Shown one piece after another: positions 11,572-25,900 of a stretch of DNA of 64,000 bases. The DNA is from an uncultured Eubacteriales bacterium (GTDB lineage: Bacteria > Bacillota > Clostridia > Christensenellales > CAG-138), in contig OW818651.1 of assembly GCA_942492885.1 (NCBI GenBank), forward strand, positions 2,479,513 through 2,543,512, read 5' to 3'. The notes beneath the pieces are model-generated. The model did no database searches. It worked only from the letters and a program-made list of their open reading frames with translations, and was not told the DNA's origin. The translations under genes and the position numbers were made by a program. Position 1 is the stretch's first letter; each line of letters starts with the position of its first letter.

Positions 11572-11662
11572 CCCACGCAAATGGCACAACCCGCGAAAGC
11601 GGGCGTCGCAAAGCTATAGGGCCTACCGGCATTCACTTGCCCACGGCAGCCAGTTTCCGAAT
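11572..11662 (+). ncRNA. c-di-GMP-I (GEMM) riboswitch aptamer
   Basis: CACGCAAAUGGCACAA-CCCGC-GAAA-GCGGG-CGUCGCAAAGCUAUAGGGCCUA...ACGGCAGCCAGUUUCCGA. P2 has a GNRA loop, the GCAAAG junction is present, and the G20/A47/C92 equivalents fall at 11583/11610/11657. Confidence 0.88.
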
Positions 11663-11722
11663 GAAGAACTCACGTTTCACACGATCAGCCGGGAACGGTT
11701 TGGTTGTGTTTCAAAAAAACGG

Positions 11723-11767
11723 TGGCGGTTCAGATTCATTGGGAATTTGAGCCGTTGTTCTTTTTTT
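11723..11767 (+). terminator. Putative riboswitch expression-platform terminator
   Basis: GU-rich stem tggcggttca/tgagccgttg followed by T7, between the aptamer and the peptidase gene. Confidence 0.45.
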
Positions 11768-11837
11768 GAACGGCTATCGAAAAAATTCTATCGTTTTATG
11801 GTGTTGACTACTTTTGATCGATTGAGGAGAGACAAAC

Positions 11838-12464
11838 ATGCAGGCTTTGCTGCCGGTGATCTACGGCGCTGCACTGGGCGCCATTCTGGCAGTCCCCGCG
11901 CGGCTCCTCTACGGGTTCTTACTCAAACAGCGCGGCATCGCCGGGCAGATGGAGCGCAAGCACTTCTGGATGTTGCTTGCAGGTATGGCGCTCATCGGCG
12001 GAGTGATCGGCTGGCGGGCGGGGGTTACCTTCCGCGGGCTATACCTCATGCTGCTGCTGCTGGTCGCGGGGCTGGCGTTTTTGATCGATGCGAAGCACCG
12101 CATCATCCCAAACGAGCTTGTGCTCGCAATTCTGGTTCTAGCCGCGGTGTTCGGGCTGACCGGGGTGATACGATTCCAGATTTGGAATTCCCTGCTAGGG
12201 CTCGCCGTATGCTTCGTCATTTTCTTTCTTCCGGGCCTGTTTGGAAAGCAGGTAGGCGCGGGGGATGTCAAGCTGGCAGCCGCGATGGGGTTTGCGCTTG
12301 GGCTAAAGGGCAGTCTGTACGCGATTGCGTGCATGGGCGCTCTGGTGCTGCTCTATGTTTTTCTAAACTGGCGCATACCGTTTGCGCAGCGGCTCAAGAC
12401 GATGATCCCGATGGGGCCGTTTCTGGCGCTTGCGCTGGTCGCAATGTCGATCATATTGGTCTAG
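11838..12464 (+). CDS. Type IV prepilin peptidase (A24 family, TadV/CpaA-like)
   Basis: Polytopic membrane protein with IDAKHRIIPN and GAGDVKL aspartate motifs; upstream of flp genes. Confidence 0.88.
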   Translation: MQALLPVIYGAALGAILAVPARLLYGFLLKQRGIAGQMERKHFWMLLAGMALIGGVIGWRAGVTFRGLYLMLLLLVAGLAFLIDAKHRIIPNELVLAILVLAAVFGLTGVIRFQIWNSLLGLAVCFVIFFLPGLFGKQVGAGDVKLAAAMGFALGLKGSLYAIACMGALVLLYVFLNWRIPFAQRLKTMIPMGPFLALALVAMSIILV

Positions 12465-19320: not shown

Positions 19321-19662
19321 ATGAAGAGTGTTACAATCGCAAAAAACGGCGAAACCATCGCGCAGGTTTGGCACGCAACCGGATATTTTGCCAGACTGCG
19401 CGGACTGTTGGGGCGATCACTGCAGGCGGACGGCGGCATGCTGCTCACTCCCTGTAACGCCATTCACACCATCGGCATGGGCTATGCGATCGACGCGCTG
19501 TATCTGGACCGGCAGGGGCGCGTGCTGAGAATTGATGAATCACTCAAACCGGGCAGGGTACTGCCGCATCAGCGCGGCGCGAAACATGTTCTCGAGTTGC
19601 CGGACGGCTGCGCAAAGCGGCGCAACATTTCGGCGGGGGACATATTGGAGGTAATCCGATGA
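19321..19662 (+). CDS. DUF192 family protein
   Basis: FARLRGLLGR...GMLLTPCNAIHTIGM...IDALYLD...VLELP. Confidence 0.85.
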   Translation: MKSVTIAKNGETIAQVWHATGYFARLRGLLGRSLQADGGMLLTPCNAIHTIGMGYAIDALYLDRQGRVLRIDESLKPGRVLPHQRGAKHVLELPDGCAKRRNISAGDILEVIR

Positions 19663-20594
19663 ACGAGCGAATCGAGCGCAACGAAGAGGGAATCGATTCC
19701 CTGCGCAGCCGCATGGACGCGGACGCACGGTTTCGCCGCTCTTTATCCGGCTATGACCCGCAGGATGTGCGCGCATATGTGGAGAACGTAAAGCGAATTT
19801 TCGCGCAGCAGACAAAAGCCGCAAAACTCGAGCAGGATCAGTTGCTCGCCCAGCTGGATTCCGCTAAGAGCGAAATTCAGGCGCGCAACTACGGCATCAA
19901 GAAGTTTAAAGAGTTGCTGGTCGAGCGCGAAGTGCAGCTCAACACCGCGAACACGCGCATCAACGCGCTCCTGCAGACCGTCAAGTCGCATGGCGCGGAG
20001 CGCGAGGAGCTCGAGCGCCTGCGTCAGGATGTGGCGAGCAGCGGTAATTTGGAGCGGATTCAACACCTGGAGAAGGAAACACAGCAGCTGCGTTCCGCGG
20101 TTGCGCAGGCGTCCAACCTGGTCAACACCTGGAAGGCGGAGCGCGAACGGCTGATGGAAGAGAACGATCGCCTGCGCGAAGAGGTCTACTATATGCGCGC
20201 GGTGGCGATGAAGCCCGAGCAAAACGCAGAACCGAACCGCCCGTATCCTGTGCAAAACACGGAACCGAACCGCCCGTATCCCGTGCAAAACGCATACCCC
20301 GGCGCATACGAGCAGAACACGCGCCCGCGCGCGGACGTGATCACCGCGGAGAACCGCTTTGTGCAGCCTGCCGTGCAACAGCCCGTGCAGCAGCCCGTGG
20401 TAAATTCGCAGCAAAAAGAATTCTCGCAGGTGGCCGATAAACTCGCGACCATGTTCGCCGAGGCGTATCAGCTCATCAGCCAGTTTAAGTCCAATCTGGA
20501 TGCGCAGCCGGAGCAGCAGCGCGCAGGGCAGCCTGCGATGCAGATCTTGCGCCCGGACACCGTGAATGCGGATGTGTTCTATCCCAGAAGATAG
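19659..20594 (+). CDS. Coiled-coil protein with DivIVA/GpsB-like N-terminal motif and P/Q-rich tail
   Basis: FRRSLSGYDPQDVRAYVE resembles the DivIVA F-x3-FRGYD-x2-EV motif; long heptad region; ATGA overlap with DUF192. Confidence 0.6.
   Translation: MNERIERNEEGIDSLRSRMDADARFRRSLSGYDPQDVRAYVENVKRIFAQQTKAAKLEQDQLLAQLDSAKSEIQARNYGIKKFKELLVEREVQLNTANTRINALLQTVKSHGAEREELERLRQDVASSGNLERIQHLEKETQQLRSAVAQASNLVNTWKAERERLMEENDRLREEVYYMRAVAMKPEQNAEPNRPYPVQNTEPNRPYPVQNAYPGAYEQNTRPRADVITAENRFVQPAVQQPVQQPVVNSQQKEFSQVADKLATMFAEAYQLISQFKSNLDAQPEQQRAGQPAMQILRPDTVNADVFYPRR
20220..20294 (+). repeat. 33-bp in-frame tandem repeat (about 2.3 copies; QN[A/T]EPNRPYPV)
   Basis: caaaacgcagaaccgaaccgcccgtatcctgtg / caaaacacggaaccgaaccgcccgtatcccgtg / caaaacgca. 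Confidence 0.92.
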
Positions 20595-20618
20595 TGCCTC
20601 AAGGCAAATGAACACAAG

Positions 20619-20664
20619 AAAAGCGCAGAAGCTACGGCAGAGGGCCGCGCGTTTGCGCTTTTTT
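20619..20664. terminator. Intrinsic terminator ending the tad operon
   Basis: aaaagcgca...tgcgctttttt between convergent genes. Confidence 0.65.
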
Positions 20665-20725
20665 GCAGGACATCCGGTAACGATTGCACCAATATAGAGA
20701 GAAACGATTCAGGCAAGAGATGCCG

Positions 20726-21163
20726 TTAGTTGGTTTTCTCGTTGCGGTAGAGGATCACCTTGCGGGCAAAGAAATTCCAGAACAGCACGACGGCTGAGGC
20801 GACCACCTTGGAGATCATGTAGTGAAACTGCACGATTTCCGTGAAAAAATACAAGAGCGCTTCGGTTAAGCCTAGTCCGACCAGCCCGATGAGTGCATAG
20901 CCCGCAAACTCCAGCACGCGCCCGACCCGCGCGGTCTCGGCGCGAAACACCAGCGCCCGCGAGAGCAGGAAGTTAAACACGAGCCCCGCGACAAACCCAA
21001 AGCACGCGGCAAGCAGATAGTGCATCCCTGCGCGCGCAAATAACCACAAAACGCCCGCGTCGACGAGGAACGAACACCCGCCGACGAACACATAGCGGAA
21101 GAACTGGATGAGCGGCCGCGTGGTCGGCTCGGTAAACAGCGTCTTGAACAAGGATTTTTCCAT
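20726..21163 (-). CDS. GtrA-family lipid-linked sugar flippase
   Basis: QFFRYVFVGGCSFLVD...NFLLSRALVF...SKVVASAVVLFWNFFARK; four TM helices. Confidence 0.9.
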   Translation of the reverse strand: MEKSLFKTLFTEPTTRPLIQFFRYVFVGGCSFLVDAGVLWLFARAGMHYLLAACFGFVAGLVFNFLLSRALVFRAETARVGRVLEFAGYALIGLVGLGLTEALLYFFTEIVQFHYMISKVVASAVVLFWNFFARKVILYRNEKTN

Positions 21164-21183
21164 CTATGCCTCCGTGTGGCGTG

Positions 21184-22737
21184 TTACGATTTCTTTTCGT
21201 GATAGCTCTGCTCGGTGTTGACGTTCCAGACGTTTTCGCGGCTCGACACACCGGCGCGGATGTTTGATACCGCTTCAAACGCCGTTGCCATGGAGTGATC
21301 CATGTTGTTGTAGCGGTGCTGTCCGTTGCGCCCGATGCAATAGAGGTTTTCAAACCCGTCCAAATACGTTTTGACCCGGTCGATCTCGGCATAGGTGTCA
21401 AAATAGGCCGGATACGCCTTTGCAACGCGCTCTCGGCAGCTGCTGAGGATGGGTGTGTCGTCGCCGATGATGCCGATGCGGATGAGCTCCTCCACTGCAA
21501 GGCGTGTGCAAGCCTCTTCGGTGAGATTCCAGAATTCGTCCCCCTCAGCGCAGAAATACTCCAGCCCGACCCAGACTGTGTTGAGCGGATCTTGCACCAT
21601 ATAGGGCGACCAGTTGTTGAAGATCTGTACGCGGCCTATCTTCACGCTCTGATCCTGCACATAGATCCAGCAGTCGGGGACGATGTCTCCCAGCGTGCGG
21701 ATGCCGGTCGTGTTCTTGAGCTTAAGGCGGTCGACTAAAAGGCCGACGGTGACAAAATCGCGATATGGCAGGCCGTCTGCAATCTGCCGAATCTCGCCGG
21801 GCACCTCCGGTAGGCCCGCGATCAGCGCACGCAGCGGCATGGAGGAGAGCACGAGATCGCAGGGGACTGCCTCGCCGCCGCAAAGAACCGCCGTGATGCG
21901 GTTTTGATCACAGGAAAAGCCGGTTACAGCTTTACCGAACAGAACGTCGCCGCCGCGCGCGCGCACCTGGTCGCAAACCGTTTCCCAGAGCTGACCGGGG
22001 CCAAACTTCGGATAGGCGAACTCCTCGATGAGCGAGGTTTCCACTGTGCGCCTGCTCTTTGGCAGCAGCCGCTCTAGTTTGTTTTTGATCAGCGCGAGGA
22101 TCGAAAGTCCCTTGACGCGCTGTGCACCCCAGTCCGCGGAGATGCGGCTCGGATGCCGCCCCCAGACTTTCTCGGTATAGCTCTCGAAAAACATGCTGTA
22201 GAGCACCTTGCCAAAACGATTGATGTAGAAATTTTCCAGCGACGTCTCCGGCAGTTTGCGAACGCAGGCGTAGAGATAGGAAAACCCCGCACGCAGGGTG
22301 GTAAGAAGCCCCATGTTGCGAAGGGTAGACCACCTCAGGCTGATCGGATAATCATAAAAGTTGCCGCCGAAATAGATCCGCGAGACGCGGCGGCGGCTGA
22401 GCATGACGCGATCCTCCCGCTCCGGGTCCGGGCCGCCGGGCGAAAGACGCGCTTCCCGCACCAGCACGCGCTCATCCAGCGCAGGCTGGCCTTGCATGGG
22501 GAGCATGCCTTCCCACCATTTGGTAACGCGCGCATCCTTGGAGAAAAAGCGGTGTCCGCCGATGTCGATCCGGTTTCCGGCGTGCTGCACGGTCTTGGAG
22601 ATTCCGCCGACGCGCGTGTCCTCTTCGAGGATAGTGACGCGATATGATTCCGGCTCTGAGAGCAGTTCATACGCTGCGGTAAGCCCTGCCGGGCCCGCAC
22701 CGATGATGACCACATGCGTTTGTTTCGGTTGTGACAT
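21184..22737 (-). CDS. FAD-dependent oxidoreductase (protoporphyrinogen oxidase / UDP-galactopyranose mutase-like superfamily)
   Basis: [50 protein letters not shown]. Confidence 0.8.
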
Positions 22738-22960
22738 TTGCGCTCCTTATGATGATTGTTTCGGGATGAAACAGGCGAAAGAGATCTGTTTGAGTTCGCT
22801 CCATCATACCATTTTTCGTCTGCGAAAAAAAGGCAATCGCGAGAATTCACCCAGCACTTTACGCAAAGTGTGTGTCGCAAAAAGAATAAAAACCATTAGA
22901 ATATCCATTTGGATTGAGCCGCGCACGGGACGTGTGCATAGAGGAATGAGGACGGTTGTA

Positions 22961-24478
22961 ATGAGCCAACTTGAGCAAGAGCAAGCGACAAAGCGCGCAG
23001 CGCCAAAGCAGGATACGGCGCTTGCGCTGCCGGAAAAACAGAATCGCACAACCAAGTGGATTTTGATGCTGCTCGTCTTTCTTCCTTGCGTACTCGTGAA
23101 TCTACAGCTGGATAACGATCTTTGGTTCTTGCTCAACAGCGGGCGCTTTGTATTACAACACGGCATTCCGACCATTGAGCCGTTCACCCTCCATCAGAAT
23201 TTCAGTTTTGTGATGCAGCAGTGGCTCTCCGCCGTGATCTTCTGGGGCGTCTACTCCAAGCTTGGCGCGGTCGGCATCCTTGCGCTTGTGTTTATGCTCT
23301 ATTGCGCAATCGTCTTTGTGACGTATCGGCTCACACTGCGCATCTCGGACGGAAACCAGATTGCGTCGTTTCTCGCAACCATCGTGACCTCTGCGGCGCT
23401 CAGGCTAGTCATGACATCCCGCCCGATGATTTTTACGATGCTGCTGTTGATTTGCGAACTGTATCTCGTTGAGCGATTCATCCGCTCATCAAGCGTGTGG
23501 TTTCTCATTCCGCTTCCGGTGCTCTCCGCGCTGCTGATCAATCTGCACGCGGCGATGTGGCCGATTCAGTTTGTGATTTTGCTGCCGTACATGATCGACG
23601 CGTTTCGCTTCAAGGTCTTGTTTGTCGAAGGGCAGGGATATCCCAAACGGTATTTCTTCCCGGCGATCGGGCTGATGTTTGGCGCGGGGTTTCTGAATCC
23701 CTACGGCTGGGATGCGATGAGCTATGTTTTTCGCTCCTACGGGTTTCGGGAGATCAGCGTGGTGCAGGAGATGCAGTCCGCGAACATCAACACGGTTTCC
23801 GGAAAGCTGATCTTCGGTGCGTTCTTCCTGCTACTTGCGATCTACATGCTCAAAAAGGAGCGAAAGACGCGTCTGCGCTACGCGCTCTTGCCGCTTGGTA
23901 CGGCGGTGCTCGCGCTGTCCTCACTGAGGAGCTTTTCGCTGTTTGCCGTGTGCGGCATCTTCCCGCTGGCGTACTTCCTGAAGAATGTAACGTTGCCCAC
24001 GGGCAAGATTAAATCACAACAAGGCGTCCTGCGCCTCCGGGCGGCTTTAATCGCGCTGGTCGCGCTGGCGGTCGGGTTGCTGTTTTTCCAGCGCGTGAGC
24101 ACCTTTGTCAAAACAGATGAAGCGCCGGAGGTATCAACGGCGGTCAATTATCTGCTCGAACACGAGCAGACGCAGGACATGGTGCTCTACACGGGCTATA
24201 ACGACGGCGGATACGCGGAGTTTATGGGGTTGAAGCCCTATATCGACCCCAGAGCCGAAGTGTTCGTCAAGAAGAACAACGGGCAAAGAGACGTCATGAA
24301 GGAGTATTATGAACTGCAATATGGACAGAAATACTATAAAGAAGTGATCGAGCACTATCACTTTACGCATCTGCTCCTCACGCATGAGGATCTGCTGTCT
24401 ACATATTTACCGCATGATGCGGCATATAAGCTGATTTACGAAGACAGCGTGTATTTGATCTATCGAAGCAGAGGATGA
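22961..24478 (+). CDS. Polytopic membrane protein, GT-C-like glycosyltransferase candidate
   Basis: About 11-13 hydrophobic segments; DNDLWFLLNSG in the first outer loop; C-terminal soluble domain YNDGGY...YIDPRAEVF. ATG 22961 behind GAGGA (the 22403 extension overlaps the opposite gene). Confidence 0.6.
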   Translation: MSQLEQEQATKRAAPKQDTALALPEKQNRTTKWILMLLVFLPCVLVNLQLDNDLWFLLNSGRFVLQHGIPTIEPFTLHQNFSFVMQQWLSAVIFWGVYSKLGAVGILALVFMLYCAIVFVTYRLTLRISDGNQIASFLATIVTSAALRLVMTSRPMIFTMLLLICELYLVERFIRSSSVWFLIPLPVLSALLINLHAAMWPIQFVILLPYMIDAFRFKVLFVEGQGYPKRYFFPAIGLMFGAGFLNPYGWDAMSYVFRSYGFREISVVQEMQSANINTVSGKLIFGAFFLLLAIYMLKKERKTRLRYALLPLGTAVLALSSLRSFSLFAVCGIFPLAYFLKNVTLPTGKIKSQQGVLRLRAALIALVALAVGLLFFQRVSTFVKTDEAPEVSTAVNYLLEHEQTQDMVLYTGYNDGGYAEFMGLKPYIDPRAEVFVKKNNGQRDVMKEYYELQYGQKYYKEVIEHYHFTHLLLTHEDLLSTYLPHDAAYKLIYEDSVYLIYRSRG

Positions 24479-24607
24479 AGTGCGCAGCGCGATTTGTCAA
24501 ACCCGGGTGATTTACGTATAACAGCCGGAAAAAACAGAATGCACGCAGCATGATTGCCTGCTTGCACAGCACATTCTGGTGAGACTGTCGTGTTACATCG
24601 GAACTTC

Positions 24608-24635
24608 TTGACTTTTTTAGTTGATCGAATATACT
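24608..24635 (+). promoter_or_regulatory. sigmaA-type promoter for tadG
   Basis: TTGACT-16-TATACT. Confidence 0.6.
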
Positions 24636-24654
24636 GACAATAGTTTGGGAAATG

Positions 24655-24737
24655 ATTGGCAATCCGCGTAAATGCGGGTGCTGTAAAGGCAAGTATCGAC
24701 CAATCCGCGCGCTTGCGCGGTAGGGTTGCCGGATGGC
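24655..24737 (+). ncRNA. Structured 5' leader, degenerate c-di-GMP-I-like
   Basis: GGCAAU-CCGCG-UAAA-UGCGG...GUAAAGGC...CCAAUC-CGCGC/GCGCG-GUAGG-GUUGCC-GGAUGGC keeps GEMM motif order, but part of P3 is missing. Confidence 0.35.
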
Positions 24738-24763
24738 GACCGACAGTTTGGGAGGAGATCTAT

Positions 24764-25900
24764 ATGCGTTCCATCATTCAATGGCTCAAAAAGGAAGCGG
24801 GGCAATCCATCATTCTGGTTGCGATCTCCATCGCGCTGCTTTGCGGTGTTGTGGCGCTTGTCGCCGATGTCGGCATGGTATCCGTGAGTCAGGGTCAGCT
24901 GCAAAACGCGGCGGACGCTGCCGCGCTTGCCGCCGCACGCGACCTGCCAACCGCAGCCACGGCCAAGAGCACCGCGGTGAAATATGCCGGCTACAACGGC
25001 GTCGCCGCCGCGGACACGACGGCCACCACCCCCTACAAAGGCAATGCCAACCGCATTGAAGTCGTCTGCAAAGAGACGGTCAACTATACGTTTGCGCGAG
25101 TCATCGGGCTCAACAGCACGGTGGTCTCCGCCCGCGCAGTCGCCGAAAAATCGGGCGGCGGAGGCGGTTGCTTTGGTTACGCGGTCTTTTCGGGCGGCAA
25201 CTCGCTGCTCCTTGGTATGTATTCCAGCGCACTCAACATCACGGGAAGCGTGCACTCGAACTATTCGCTGATGATCACGGGTTCCAGCCAGACGATCACC
25301 GGAAATGCGGAAGCTGTCACCTCGCTGAACTGCTATGTTTCTTCGATTACAATCGGCGGTGTTGCGCAGGGTGCATCCATCGATATTCAGGGAAGCACAA
25401 TCAACGTTCCCAACCGGCTGACAAGCCCTGCCGCATTTATTCCGATGCCCGATTTTTCGGCTGAAGTGAAGACGGAGGCGACGGCTGCGGGAAATGCATC
25501 AACCGGAAACAAGACGTTCTACGGTACCAACTTCAACGTAGACTCTTCGTTCTATGTGGACGGCAACGTCCAAGTGGCGGCAAGCACGTTCTCGGGACAG
25601 GGAACGATTTGCGCGACGAAAGACATCAACATGAGCGGCAGTATGTTGGAAGCCAACTCGGGTACGGCAGTCTGTCTGTATTCGACCGGCGGCAACATCA
25701 GCCTCTCGACATCAGGGCTGACCATCAATGGAACGCTCTACGCGCCCAATGGAAAAATCGGGATCTACGCCAGCAATATCAACATATACGGCAGGGTCAT
25801 CGCGAAGGAAATCATTATCACGGGCAGCAATGTCAATATCATCTCCGGTTCAACCGACCTTGACTTCCTCGCCGGCGGAACCATCGCGCTGATTGAATAG
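24764..25900 (+). CDS. tadG: TadG-like pseudopilin with C-terminal beta-rich putative adhesin domain
   Basis: KEAGQSIILVAISIALLCGVVALVADVG...QLQNAADAAALAAA...VSARAVA; G/S/T/N-rich C-terminus. ATG 24764 behind GGGAGG. Confidence 0.85.
   Translation: MRSIIQWLKKEAGQSIILVAISIALLCGVVALVADVGMVSVSQGQLQNAADAAALAAARDLPTAATAKSTAVKYAGYNGVAAADTTATTPYKGNANRIEVVCKETVNYTFARVIGLNSTVVSARAVAEKSGGGGGCFGYAVFSGGNSLLLGMYSSALNITGSVHSNYSLMITGSSQTITGNAEAVTSLNCYVSSITIGGVAQGASIDIQGSTINVPNRLTSPAAFIPMPDFSAEVKTEATAAGNASTGNKTFYGTNFNVDSSFYVDGNVQVAASTFSGQGTICATKDINMSGSMLEANSGTAVCLYSTGGNISLSTSGLTINGTLYAPNGKIGIYASNINIYGRVIAKEIIITGSNVNIISGSTDLDFLAGGTIALIE

Follow-up and report, generated by a model that had tools for sequence, protein, structure and literature searches.

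The leader of a tadG-like gene in a Christensenellales genome and its resemblance to c-di-GMP-I riboswitches

Does the window analysed here, the whole 64-kb stretch of DNA, carry a second c-di-GMP-I riboswitch in front of its tadG-like gene and, if not, what is the RNA leader found there? At Rfam gathering thresholds, one c-di-GMP-I riboswitch was detected at 11573-11661 (67.6 bits), the only one of its class in the window. The tad operon lies behind it, starts at 11838, and encodes a prepilin peptidase, two Flp pilins, TadE, CpaB, a TadZ-like ATPase, TadA, TadB, and TadC. A hairpin with a T-run is located at about 11700-11770, between this riboswitch and the operon. The tadG-like gene (24764..25900, + strand), for which orthologues were found, codes for a 378-aa protein whose N-terminus carries a Tad domain (PF13400, E 2.5e-10). 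It lies downstream of the riboswitch-controlled operon, 4.2 kb from its end, behind a sigma-A-type promoter of its own. A preliminary description of the region had read the leader behind this promoter as atypical and GEMM-like, that is, of the c-di-GMP-I type, and had offered three options for it: a variant aptamer with an altered ligand, a decayed copy, or a different motif.

Layout of the promoter and leader

The promoter (24608..24635, + strand) consists of TTGACT at 24608-24613, a 16-nt spacer, and TATACT at 24630-24635, just as had been described, and matches the consensus at 10 of 12 positions. Two promoter-like sites were predicted in 24300-25000, where shuffled sequences gave a mean of 1.0; the number of terminator-like sites in the same interval was zero. 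An invertible promoter was considered and rejected, since no notable flanking inverted repeats were found in 24380-24800. The leader, or 5' UTR, of about 122-128 nt occupies 24636..24763 (+ strand), with transcription inferred to start near 24641-24643. Homologues were identified in the genomes G025, G014, and G005 and at the loci L049/L050, L051, and L056.

All strings on which the GEMM reading had been built are present where it placed them: GGCAA at 24658-24662, a CCGC/GCGG hairpin at 24664-24677 with the expected 6-nt loop, GUAAAU, GUAAAG at 24683-24688, CCAAUC at 24700-24705 followed by CCGCGC-GCUU-GCGCGG, and GUUGCC-GGAUGGC at 24725-24737. The repeat reported at both ends of the leader is AGTTTGGGA (24642-24650 and 24745-24753); a repeat search confirmed that its second copy runs into the SD, GGGAGGAG (24750-24757), the two together spanning 24745..24757 on the + strand. 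One repeat had escaped the earlier list, namely CAATCCGCG, an exact 9-nt direct repeat found at 24660 and 24701.

The leader can form three hairpins, all on the + strand. Hairpin A (24659..24681, -12.2 kcal/mol) pairs GC-A-AUCCGC with GCGGGU-GC around the loop GUAAAU, hairpin B (24705..24720, -11.5 kcal/mol) pairs CCGCGC with GCGCGG around GCUU, and hairpin C (24724..24741, -12.4 kcal/mol) pairs GGUUGCC with GGCGACC around GGAU. Hairpins A and B both open with the same word, CAAUCCGCG, provided by the CAATCCGCG repeat. The CCAA at 24700..24703 (+ strand) can pair either with UUGG at 24645-24648, within the 5' AGTTTGGGA copy (24642..24650, + strand), or with the UUGG flanking the SD, which is its partner in the MFE structure. 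The two long-range pairings proposed earlier, GAUUGG/CCAAUC (6 bp) and GGCAAUCC/GGGUUGCC (8 bp), are both possible in the window sequence and are indeed mutually exclusive.

Comparison with c-di-GMP-I riboswitches

A low-threshold search against c-di-GMP-I variants and ydaO had been proposed as a check on the GEMM reading. An Rfam scan of 24480-24800 at E<=10 returned no cyclic-dinucleotide family, be it of the c-di-GMP, cGAMP, or ydaO type; the four matches obtained were weak, the best being Chlorobi-1 with 16.7 bits against a cut-off of 50. When RF01051 was searched across the genome at E<=10, with 150 of the 357 candidates scored, three canonical copies were recovered (82, 68.3, and 67.6 bits, the last being the copy in the window), and the leader was not among the matches. 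It did not reach the RF01051 gathering threshold of 35 bits.

A c-di-GMP-I model for the genus, R2, was made from the alignment of 24 canonical riboswitches of the genus and searched with filters off. It scored six of six held-out true riboswitches at 95.1-99 bits and the three true copies of the own genome at 92.6-105.5 bits, against 17.6 bits for the leader. Within the window the leader is the top match that is not a riboswitch, the next one having 11.5 bits, but genome-wide two unrelated sites score higher, at 20.4 and 19.0 bits (150 of 1993 candidates scored). The homologous leaders fare worse still: the nearest metagenome relative scores 15.2 bits and G025 6.9 bits, and those of G014, L051, G005, and L056 give no score. 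The GEMM-like words GUAAAG and GGCAA are missing from five of the six homologous leaders, being kept only in the window and in the nearest metagenome relative. The claim that the set of c-di-GMP-I motifs stands above chance was therefore not borne out, given a score below genomic noise and no cyclic-dinucleotide match in Rfam at E<=10.

The departures from the class extend to several of its hallmarks. The GAAA tetraloop (GNRA) present in 24 of 24 genus riboswitches is replaced by GUAAAU in the first hairpin of the leader, and the hairpin A loops of the homologues read UAAUG, GUAACGA, GUAACAA, CAUAAUGC, or GUAAU. The second arm, hairpin B (CCGCGC/GCGCGG), runs through 6 bp without interruption and has neither an internal loop nor a tetraloop receptor. 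For the 3' strand of the lower stem, GGCAGCC in the riboswitches, the R2 alignment uses GGGUUGCC and then cannot close P1, as its non-canonical marks indicate. In the junction ACGCAAAGCUA, which on the basis of the Vc2 structures we take to hold ligand-contacting bases, all 24 genus copies have C35, C37, C42, and U43, positions at which the leader has U, U, G, and C; only G36 and AAA are kept, and homologues have AGCAAACGAUAC, AGCACGAUAAAC, and similar sequences at this place. The candidate closing helix P1, GGCAAUCC/GGGUUGCC, is 87.5% paired in five sequences, with 0 double changes and a covariation score of 0. Its variation only breaks pairs, and the helix excludes hairpins A and C. The other long-range pairing, GAUUGG/CCAAUC, is 80% paired, likewise with 0 double changes. 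As for a riboswitch expression platform, zero terminators were found and no anti-SD pairing is conserved across the seven leaders.

Could the leader nevertheless be a decayed c-di-GMP-I riboswitch that formerly controlled tadG? Its R2 match, with E about 0.005 in 64 kb, covers the full model with the motifs in order. Riboswitches of the class are plentiful in the genus, with 1-7 copies in every one of 40 genomes; one precedes the tad operon in the window, and in 16 of 19 genomes they are also found ahead of a distant TadG-like gene. However, 4 of the 20 pairs in the model alignment are non-canonical and negative-scoring, the GAAA loop and the four invariant junction bases are changed, and unrelated genomic sites score above the leader. 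Since the homologous leaders score low or not at all, the resemblance comes from a few lineage-specific bases. Nor was a canonical or intermediate copy seen before tadG paralogues: at gathering thresholds no Rfam family was found at 20 loci (79,340 bases), and R2 with filters off gave no leader match at 19 loci, its best hit of 12.5 bits lying elsewhere than the leader. Decay is thus, in our judgement, highly improbable. With homologous leaders at 15.2 or 6.9 bits or without a score, neither the variant aptamer nor the decayed copy of the preliminary description gains support.

Judged by its sequence, the leader is neither a c-di-GMP-I aptamer nor a recognisable remnant of one; as far as these comparisons reach, its GEMM likeness is real in one sequence, yet at noise level, and the homologous leaders have not inherited it. 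In practical terms the outcome is negative: no second c-di-GMP-I riboswitch joins the one at 11573-11661 in the window, and the tadG copy described here warrants no annotation as riboswitch-controlled.

Two arrangements of true c-di-GMP-I riboswitches were observed in the genus. In 16 of 19 genus genomes, according to a comparison of two coordinate tables, the distant TadG-like gene, which matches only over the N-terminal ~120 aa, follows one or two c-di-GMP-I riboswitches of the same strand at a distance of 2-3.5 kb (e.g., G021:C1:2070277-2074090 and G030:C1:544660-550082). Directly tandem aptamers, about 92 nt from start to start and separated by a few bases, were seen in at least 11 genus genomes (e.g., G027:C19:38877-39057, G009:C6:118888-119068, and G023:C38:50578-50758).

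Homologous leaders and conserved hairpins

Relatives of the tadG protein were found in 36 of the 61 genomes searched, the own genome included, and reading 28 upstream regions revealed the same leader in G025, G014, and G005. A DNA search of the genus gave matches at E<=0.01 in 7 of 40 genomes: full-length only in G025 and G014 (75% and 74% BLAST identity over promoter and leader, respectively), partial in G005, and restricted to the promoter in three. Scanning metagenomes with a promoter-plus-leader pattern yielded three loci, two of them identical in the leader region, and thus two distinct new leaders; of three loci obtained from genome contigs, one, L056 (a MAG), has a divergent version of the leader. 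A covariance model built from five leaders (R1) detected it in 4 of the 40 genus genomes, in one copy each, always before the tadG orthologue, and it is likewise single-copy in the own genome. At the right place, R1 scored 38.3 bits in G005 and 19.7 bits (E 0.027) in L056. Among 151 family genomes (50 genera), searched with stricter filters, it matched the own genome, G014, and, outside the genus, one site with 22.6 bits (E 0.51).

The leader is 72-81% identical to those of G025, G014, and L051, compared with 41-49% at the fourfold-degenerate sites of tadG. Its first 36 nt are best kept, with GACANTA...TGG...GGCNATCCGCRTAA invariant in four sequences, and AUCCGCRUAA, which comprises the 5' strand of hairpin A and the start of its loop, is the best-conserved part, made up of invariant columns. 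From position 37 to the end, gapped identity is 0.72-0.73 against 0.58-0.60 (maximum 0.67) for shuffled sequences, the baseline of such gapped shuffles being 0.57-0.60 overall and their maximum 0.67-0.72. Beyond the first 36 nt, G005 and L056 are barely alignable, with an identity of 0.63 versus 0.57-0.58 for shuffled sequences. The divergence of leader and protein is uncoupled: L056 has a protein identity of 87% and a leader identity (37-end) of 0.63, and for L049 the corresponding values are 68% and 0.86-0.97.

Both promoter and leader are absent from G033, G032, and G011, which have the closest tadG proteins besides that of L056 (78-88% identical); therefore, the leader is dispensable for tadG as such. 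R1 found no match in the ~110-nt spacer before tadG of these genomes. Local alignments of the leader with this spacer gave scores mostly within the shuffled range, and homology was rejected as not clear; the exceptions were L010 against G025 (28 versus a shuffled maximum of 23, a 14-nt match) and the SD-to-ATG stretch of L014 (24 and 23 versus shuffled maxima of 21 and 22, against G014 and L051, respectively).

The surroundings of the gene differ as well. In G033, G032, and G011, tadG is directly preceded by an orthologue of the 311-aa coiled-coil gene at 19659-20594 (no Pfam match), and the distance from the tad-operon riboswitch to tadG is about 9.1 kb, compared with 12.3-13.3 kb in leader-bearing genomes. 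These three genomes lack an extra 4.2-kb block (window 20595-24478) containing a GtrA-family gene (20726-21163, - strand), an FAD amine-oxidase-like gene (21184-22737, - strand), and a gene for a polytopic membrane protein of no Pfam family (listed ORF 22403-24478). Because the latter ORF shares 335 nt with the minus-strand gene, it probably begins further downstream, possibly with a Met at about 22961. In G014, G025, G005, and L051, the gene for this polytopic membrane protein accompanies the leader in synteny. The presence of the extra block and the pattern of distances indicate that the leader accompanies tadG as a separate transcription unit.

Local folding placed three hairpins at equivalent positions in seven of seven sequences. 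In a nearly gap-free alignment of five, the cells of hairpins A-C and of the helix between CCAA and the 5' UUGG are 93% paired, versus 32-45% with slid partners. Two pairs are changed on both sides, and the covariation is 0.143 compared with 0.114 after shuffling (19 of 500 shuffles reach it). Hairpin A is out of register by one base in the window sequence and L049 in this alignment, and its count is lowered accordingly. An alignment of all seven, which was fitted to the model and hence favours structure, is 89.1% paired versus 79.9% for shuffles; 9 of 19 pairs are changed on both sides, and none of 500 shuffles reaches any of these measures. Nearly all double-sided changes come from the two divergent sequences, G005 and L056. 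In the five-sequence alignment, the helix of hairpin C is 100% paired, with pair 91-104 appearing as UA, CG, or UG. The 5' UUGG:CCAA helix is also 100% paired in five sequences and shows one compensatory change of G-C to A-U in L049, where G-to-A in the 5' UUGG copy is matched by C-to-U in CCAA. RNAalifold applied to a plain MAFFT alignment of four sequences gave only parts of hairpins B and C, plus a spurious small hairpin. Two further elements were discarded: a small 5'-proximal hairpin, whose register varies among subgroups and which was not counted as conserved, and a pairing of the 5' end with the start codon, which has 7 bp in G025 and is limited to at most 4 bp or absent in the others.

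Covariation among tadG leaders, another check suggested in the preliminary description, is lacking in its two long-range pairings, and some compensatory change, as double-sided changes of pairs, is seen among the hairpins. Of its three options, the different motif survives in a weak form, as a conserved leader with three hairpins whose conserved part is not GEMM. It had also named a want of conserved structure in homologues as grounds for giving up the idea; the three hairpins are kept there, and what has fallen is the GEMM identity. Taken together, above-neutral conservation and retained hairpins mark the region, at the level of sequence comparison, as a conserved structured 5' UTR, presumably acting in cis.

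A more sceptical view is that the leader serves for spacing only, its similarity reflecting recent common descent or gene conversion and its hairpins being those expected of G+C-rich palindromic sequence. Folded as a whole, the leader is indeed not exceptionally stable (z -0.61; 53 of 200 shuffles fold equally well), and among the seven leaders z ranges from -0.58 to -2.09, with MFE structures that vary among homologues. The GCGC-N4-GCGC core of hairpin B is unchanged throughout the five sequences, and the uncoupled divergence of leader and protein in L056 and L049 suggests recombination. This view is nonetheless opposed by the excess of leader identity over fourfold-degenerate sites in G025, G014, and L051 and by the retention of hairpin positions in G005 and L056 despite sequence turnover, and we consider it improbable.

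The same conservation, well above that of synonymous sites, could be taken as the mark of a new ligand-sensing aptamer, either a c-di-GMP-I variant with altered specificity or a member of an unrelated riboswitch class. The hairpins with some compensatory change, the invariant loop and strand AUCCGCRUAA, and the c-di-GMP control of the operon that is the partner of tadG would all fit. However, a covarying multi-helix junction was not found, the proposed closing helix lacks covariation, and neither terminators (0) nor a conserved SD-sequestering helix provide an expression platform. Among 40 genomes of one genus, 4 have the leader, each as a single copy and always ahead of the same gene; to these the family draw added only the 22.6-bit match (E 0.51). 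The folding energy of the leader is unremarkable. A sensor of this kind is accordingly as improbable, in our estimate, as decay from a riboswitch; we read the region as an orphan leader of an ordinary kind, not as a new sensor.

Two other candidates were rejected. A conserved leader peptide was considered in view of a 23-codon ORF within the leader (AUG at leader positions 17-19), but frames and ends differ between leaders, and an AUG is found at this position in four of the seven, being absent in G025, L051, and L056. Control by CsrA was discarded since no PF02599 match was obtained in the genome (one contig, 94.7% complete), with controls matched in three genomes; GGA is present in the hairpin C loop of only four of the seven leaders.

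Promoter module and possible role of the leader

The promoter is part of a module located upstream of tadG paralogues (window 24593-24650; L012-L027, L049, L051, and L056). Across 18 such promoters of the genus, TTGAC is invariant (18/18), the spacer is 16 nt (TTGAC-N17-TATACT), and TATACT is found in 17 of 18, as is its C. A TAG located 6-8 nt 3' of the -10 box is near-invariant (T 17/18, A 16/18, G 13/18); together with TATACT, it produces an inverted repeat, ATACT-N6-AGTAT, spanning the start site. In several of these promoters, a TTACA-N-TGTAA palindrome adjoins the -35 box, and an element of the TTACAT..(G/T)AAC type is present in 7 of the 18 aligned, being perfect in L021, L023, and L025. 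The promoter alignment reveals a degenerate copy of the palindrome in the window, TTACATCGGAAC (24593..24604, + strand), which may serve as a binding site for a protein. At 18 of 18 loci, the -10 box and the ATG are 115-136 nt apart. The leaders behind this common module belong to unrelated sequence families, and conservation inside the other leader subfamilies is confined to the first ~25 nt.

These features could point to control at the DNA level, in which the block from -50 to about +36 would consist of operator sites for a factor common to the tadG paralogues, the rest being loosely constrained spacer. The strongest conservation, which runs from the promoter to +36, might just as well stem from such an operator, and this tells against a leader acting as RNA. 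The near-constant promoter, the two palindromes, the short conserved stretch of the other subfamilies, and the fixed distance to the ATG all agree with this explanation. Nevertheless, both palindromes are degenerate in the window sequence (AGTTT for AGTAT and CGGAA for TGTAA), and a regulon is not visible in the genome: the promoter pattern gave 3 matches versus 1 in the control, and the leader word GGCNATCCGCRTAA, with up to one mismatch, gave 9 versus 6. An operator would also not account for the hairpins, which persist in G005 and L056 with altered sequence. Control at the DNA level is the main rival and is compatible with a structured leader; we regard it as unlikely, although clearly less so than spacing. 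An exact second copy of GGCNATCCGCRTAA is located outside the window at G000:C1:3392179-3392192; the counts equal those of the reversed-pattern control, and this copy is probably due to chance.

The explanation that we favour, and to which we would give about an even chance, is that the region comprises a promoter and a lineage-restricted structured leader of ~128 nt that acts in cis, without ligand sensing, and tunes translation and/or mRNA stability. In its layout, a conserved 5' segment (its first ~23 nt being predicted as unpaired) would be followed by hairpin A, with a loop starting with RUAA, by an A-rich linker, and by the G+C-rich hairpins B and C, placed directly before the SD. At the RNA level, the leader would most likely govern how translation is initiated and/or how stable the transcript is. 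In the five close leaders, two UUGG copies, one at the 5' end and one at the 5' edge of the SD, could alternate as partners of the CCAA before hairpin B, and occupation of CCAA by the 5' copy could keep the ribosome-binding site open. The 5' UUGG, the CCAA, and the SD-flanking UUGG are possibly a weak three-element arrangement. The alternative pairing has only 4 bp and is absent from G005 and L056. Once 30 nt of coding sequence are added, the CCAA:UUGG helix is not dominant in ensemble folding, and the SD pairs mainly with the first tadG codons, not with the leader, in four of seven sequences, its mean unpaired probability being 0.22-0.42.

A bolder version of the structured-leader explanation would make the three-hairpin tadG leader a new, genus-restricted cis-regulatory RNA. 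Its 5' segment and RUAA loop would be bound by a trans-acting factor or a small molecule, possibly linked to c-di-GMP, re-coupling the detached tadG to the riboswitch-controlled tad operon, with the UUGG/CCAA/SD-UUGG triad as output switch. We consider this a long shot, on a par with the spacing explanation.

If functional, the leader would show how a minor-pilin or adhesin-like gene detached from the c-di-GMP-controlled Tad operon is regulated in Christensenellaceae. A limited literature search on RNA regulation in this gut-associated family returned no relevant publications. The promoter module of the tadG paralogues may be a more useful lead than the leader itself.

Among known systems, the nearest is c-di-GMP-I (GEMM-I, RF01051), represented by the riboswitch at 11573-11661. 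Like the tadG leader, it resides in the 5' leader of Tad-pilus-related genes of the same genome, and the two share GGCAA with a first hairpin, an A-rich junction, a G+C-rich hairpin, and a GUUGCC-like 3' strand; in a hand alignment, about 22 of 33 positions in the first half of the leader equal the genus consensus. Unlike the riboswitch, the leader has a 6-nt loop in place of GAAA, a plain 6-bp stem as its second hairpin, changed junction bases, and no terminator; it gives 17.6 bits and no RF01051 match, and its resemblance is not common to the homologous leaders.

Three-element translational switches (anti-anti-SD/anti-SD/SD) are known from riboswitch expression platforms and RNA thermometers. 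In the tadG leader, near-identical UUGG copies (AGUUUGGGA, present twice) can similarly compete for one CCAA, and within its family the one compensatory change in L049 keeps the 5' pairing. In contrast to such switches, the helix is of 4 bp, is not the ensemble optimum with coding sequence, and is absent from G005 and L056, and no sensor domain is attached.

Structured 5' UTRs of Gram-positive bacteria, such as the aprE leader of Bacillus subtilis and the ermC leader, stabilise mRNA or tune translation. Classic mRNA stabilisers have a hairpin at the very 5' end, whereas the first ~23 nt of the tadG leader are predicted to be unpaired. In other respects the tadG leader resembles the aprE and ermC type: it is long, follows a strong sigma-A promoter, lacks a ligand-binding architecture, and carries stable hairpins directly before a strong SD.
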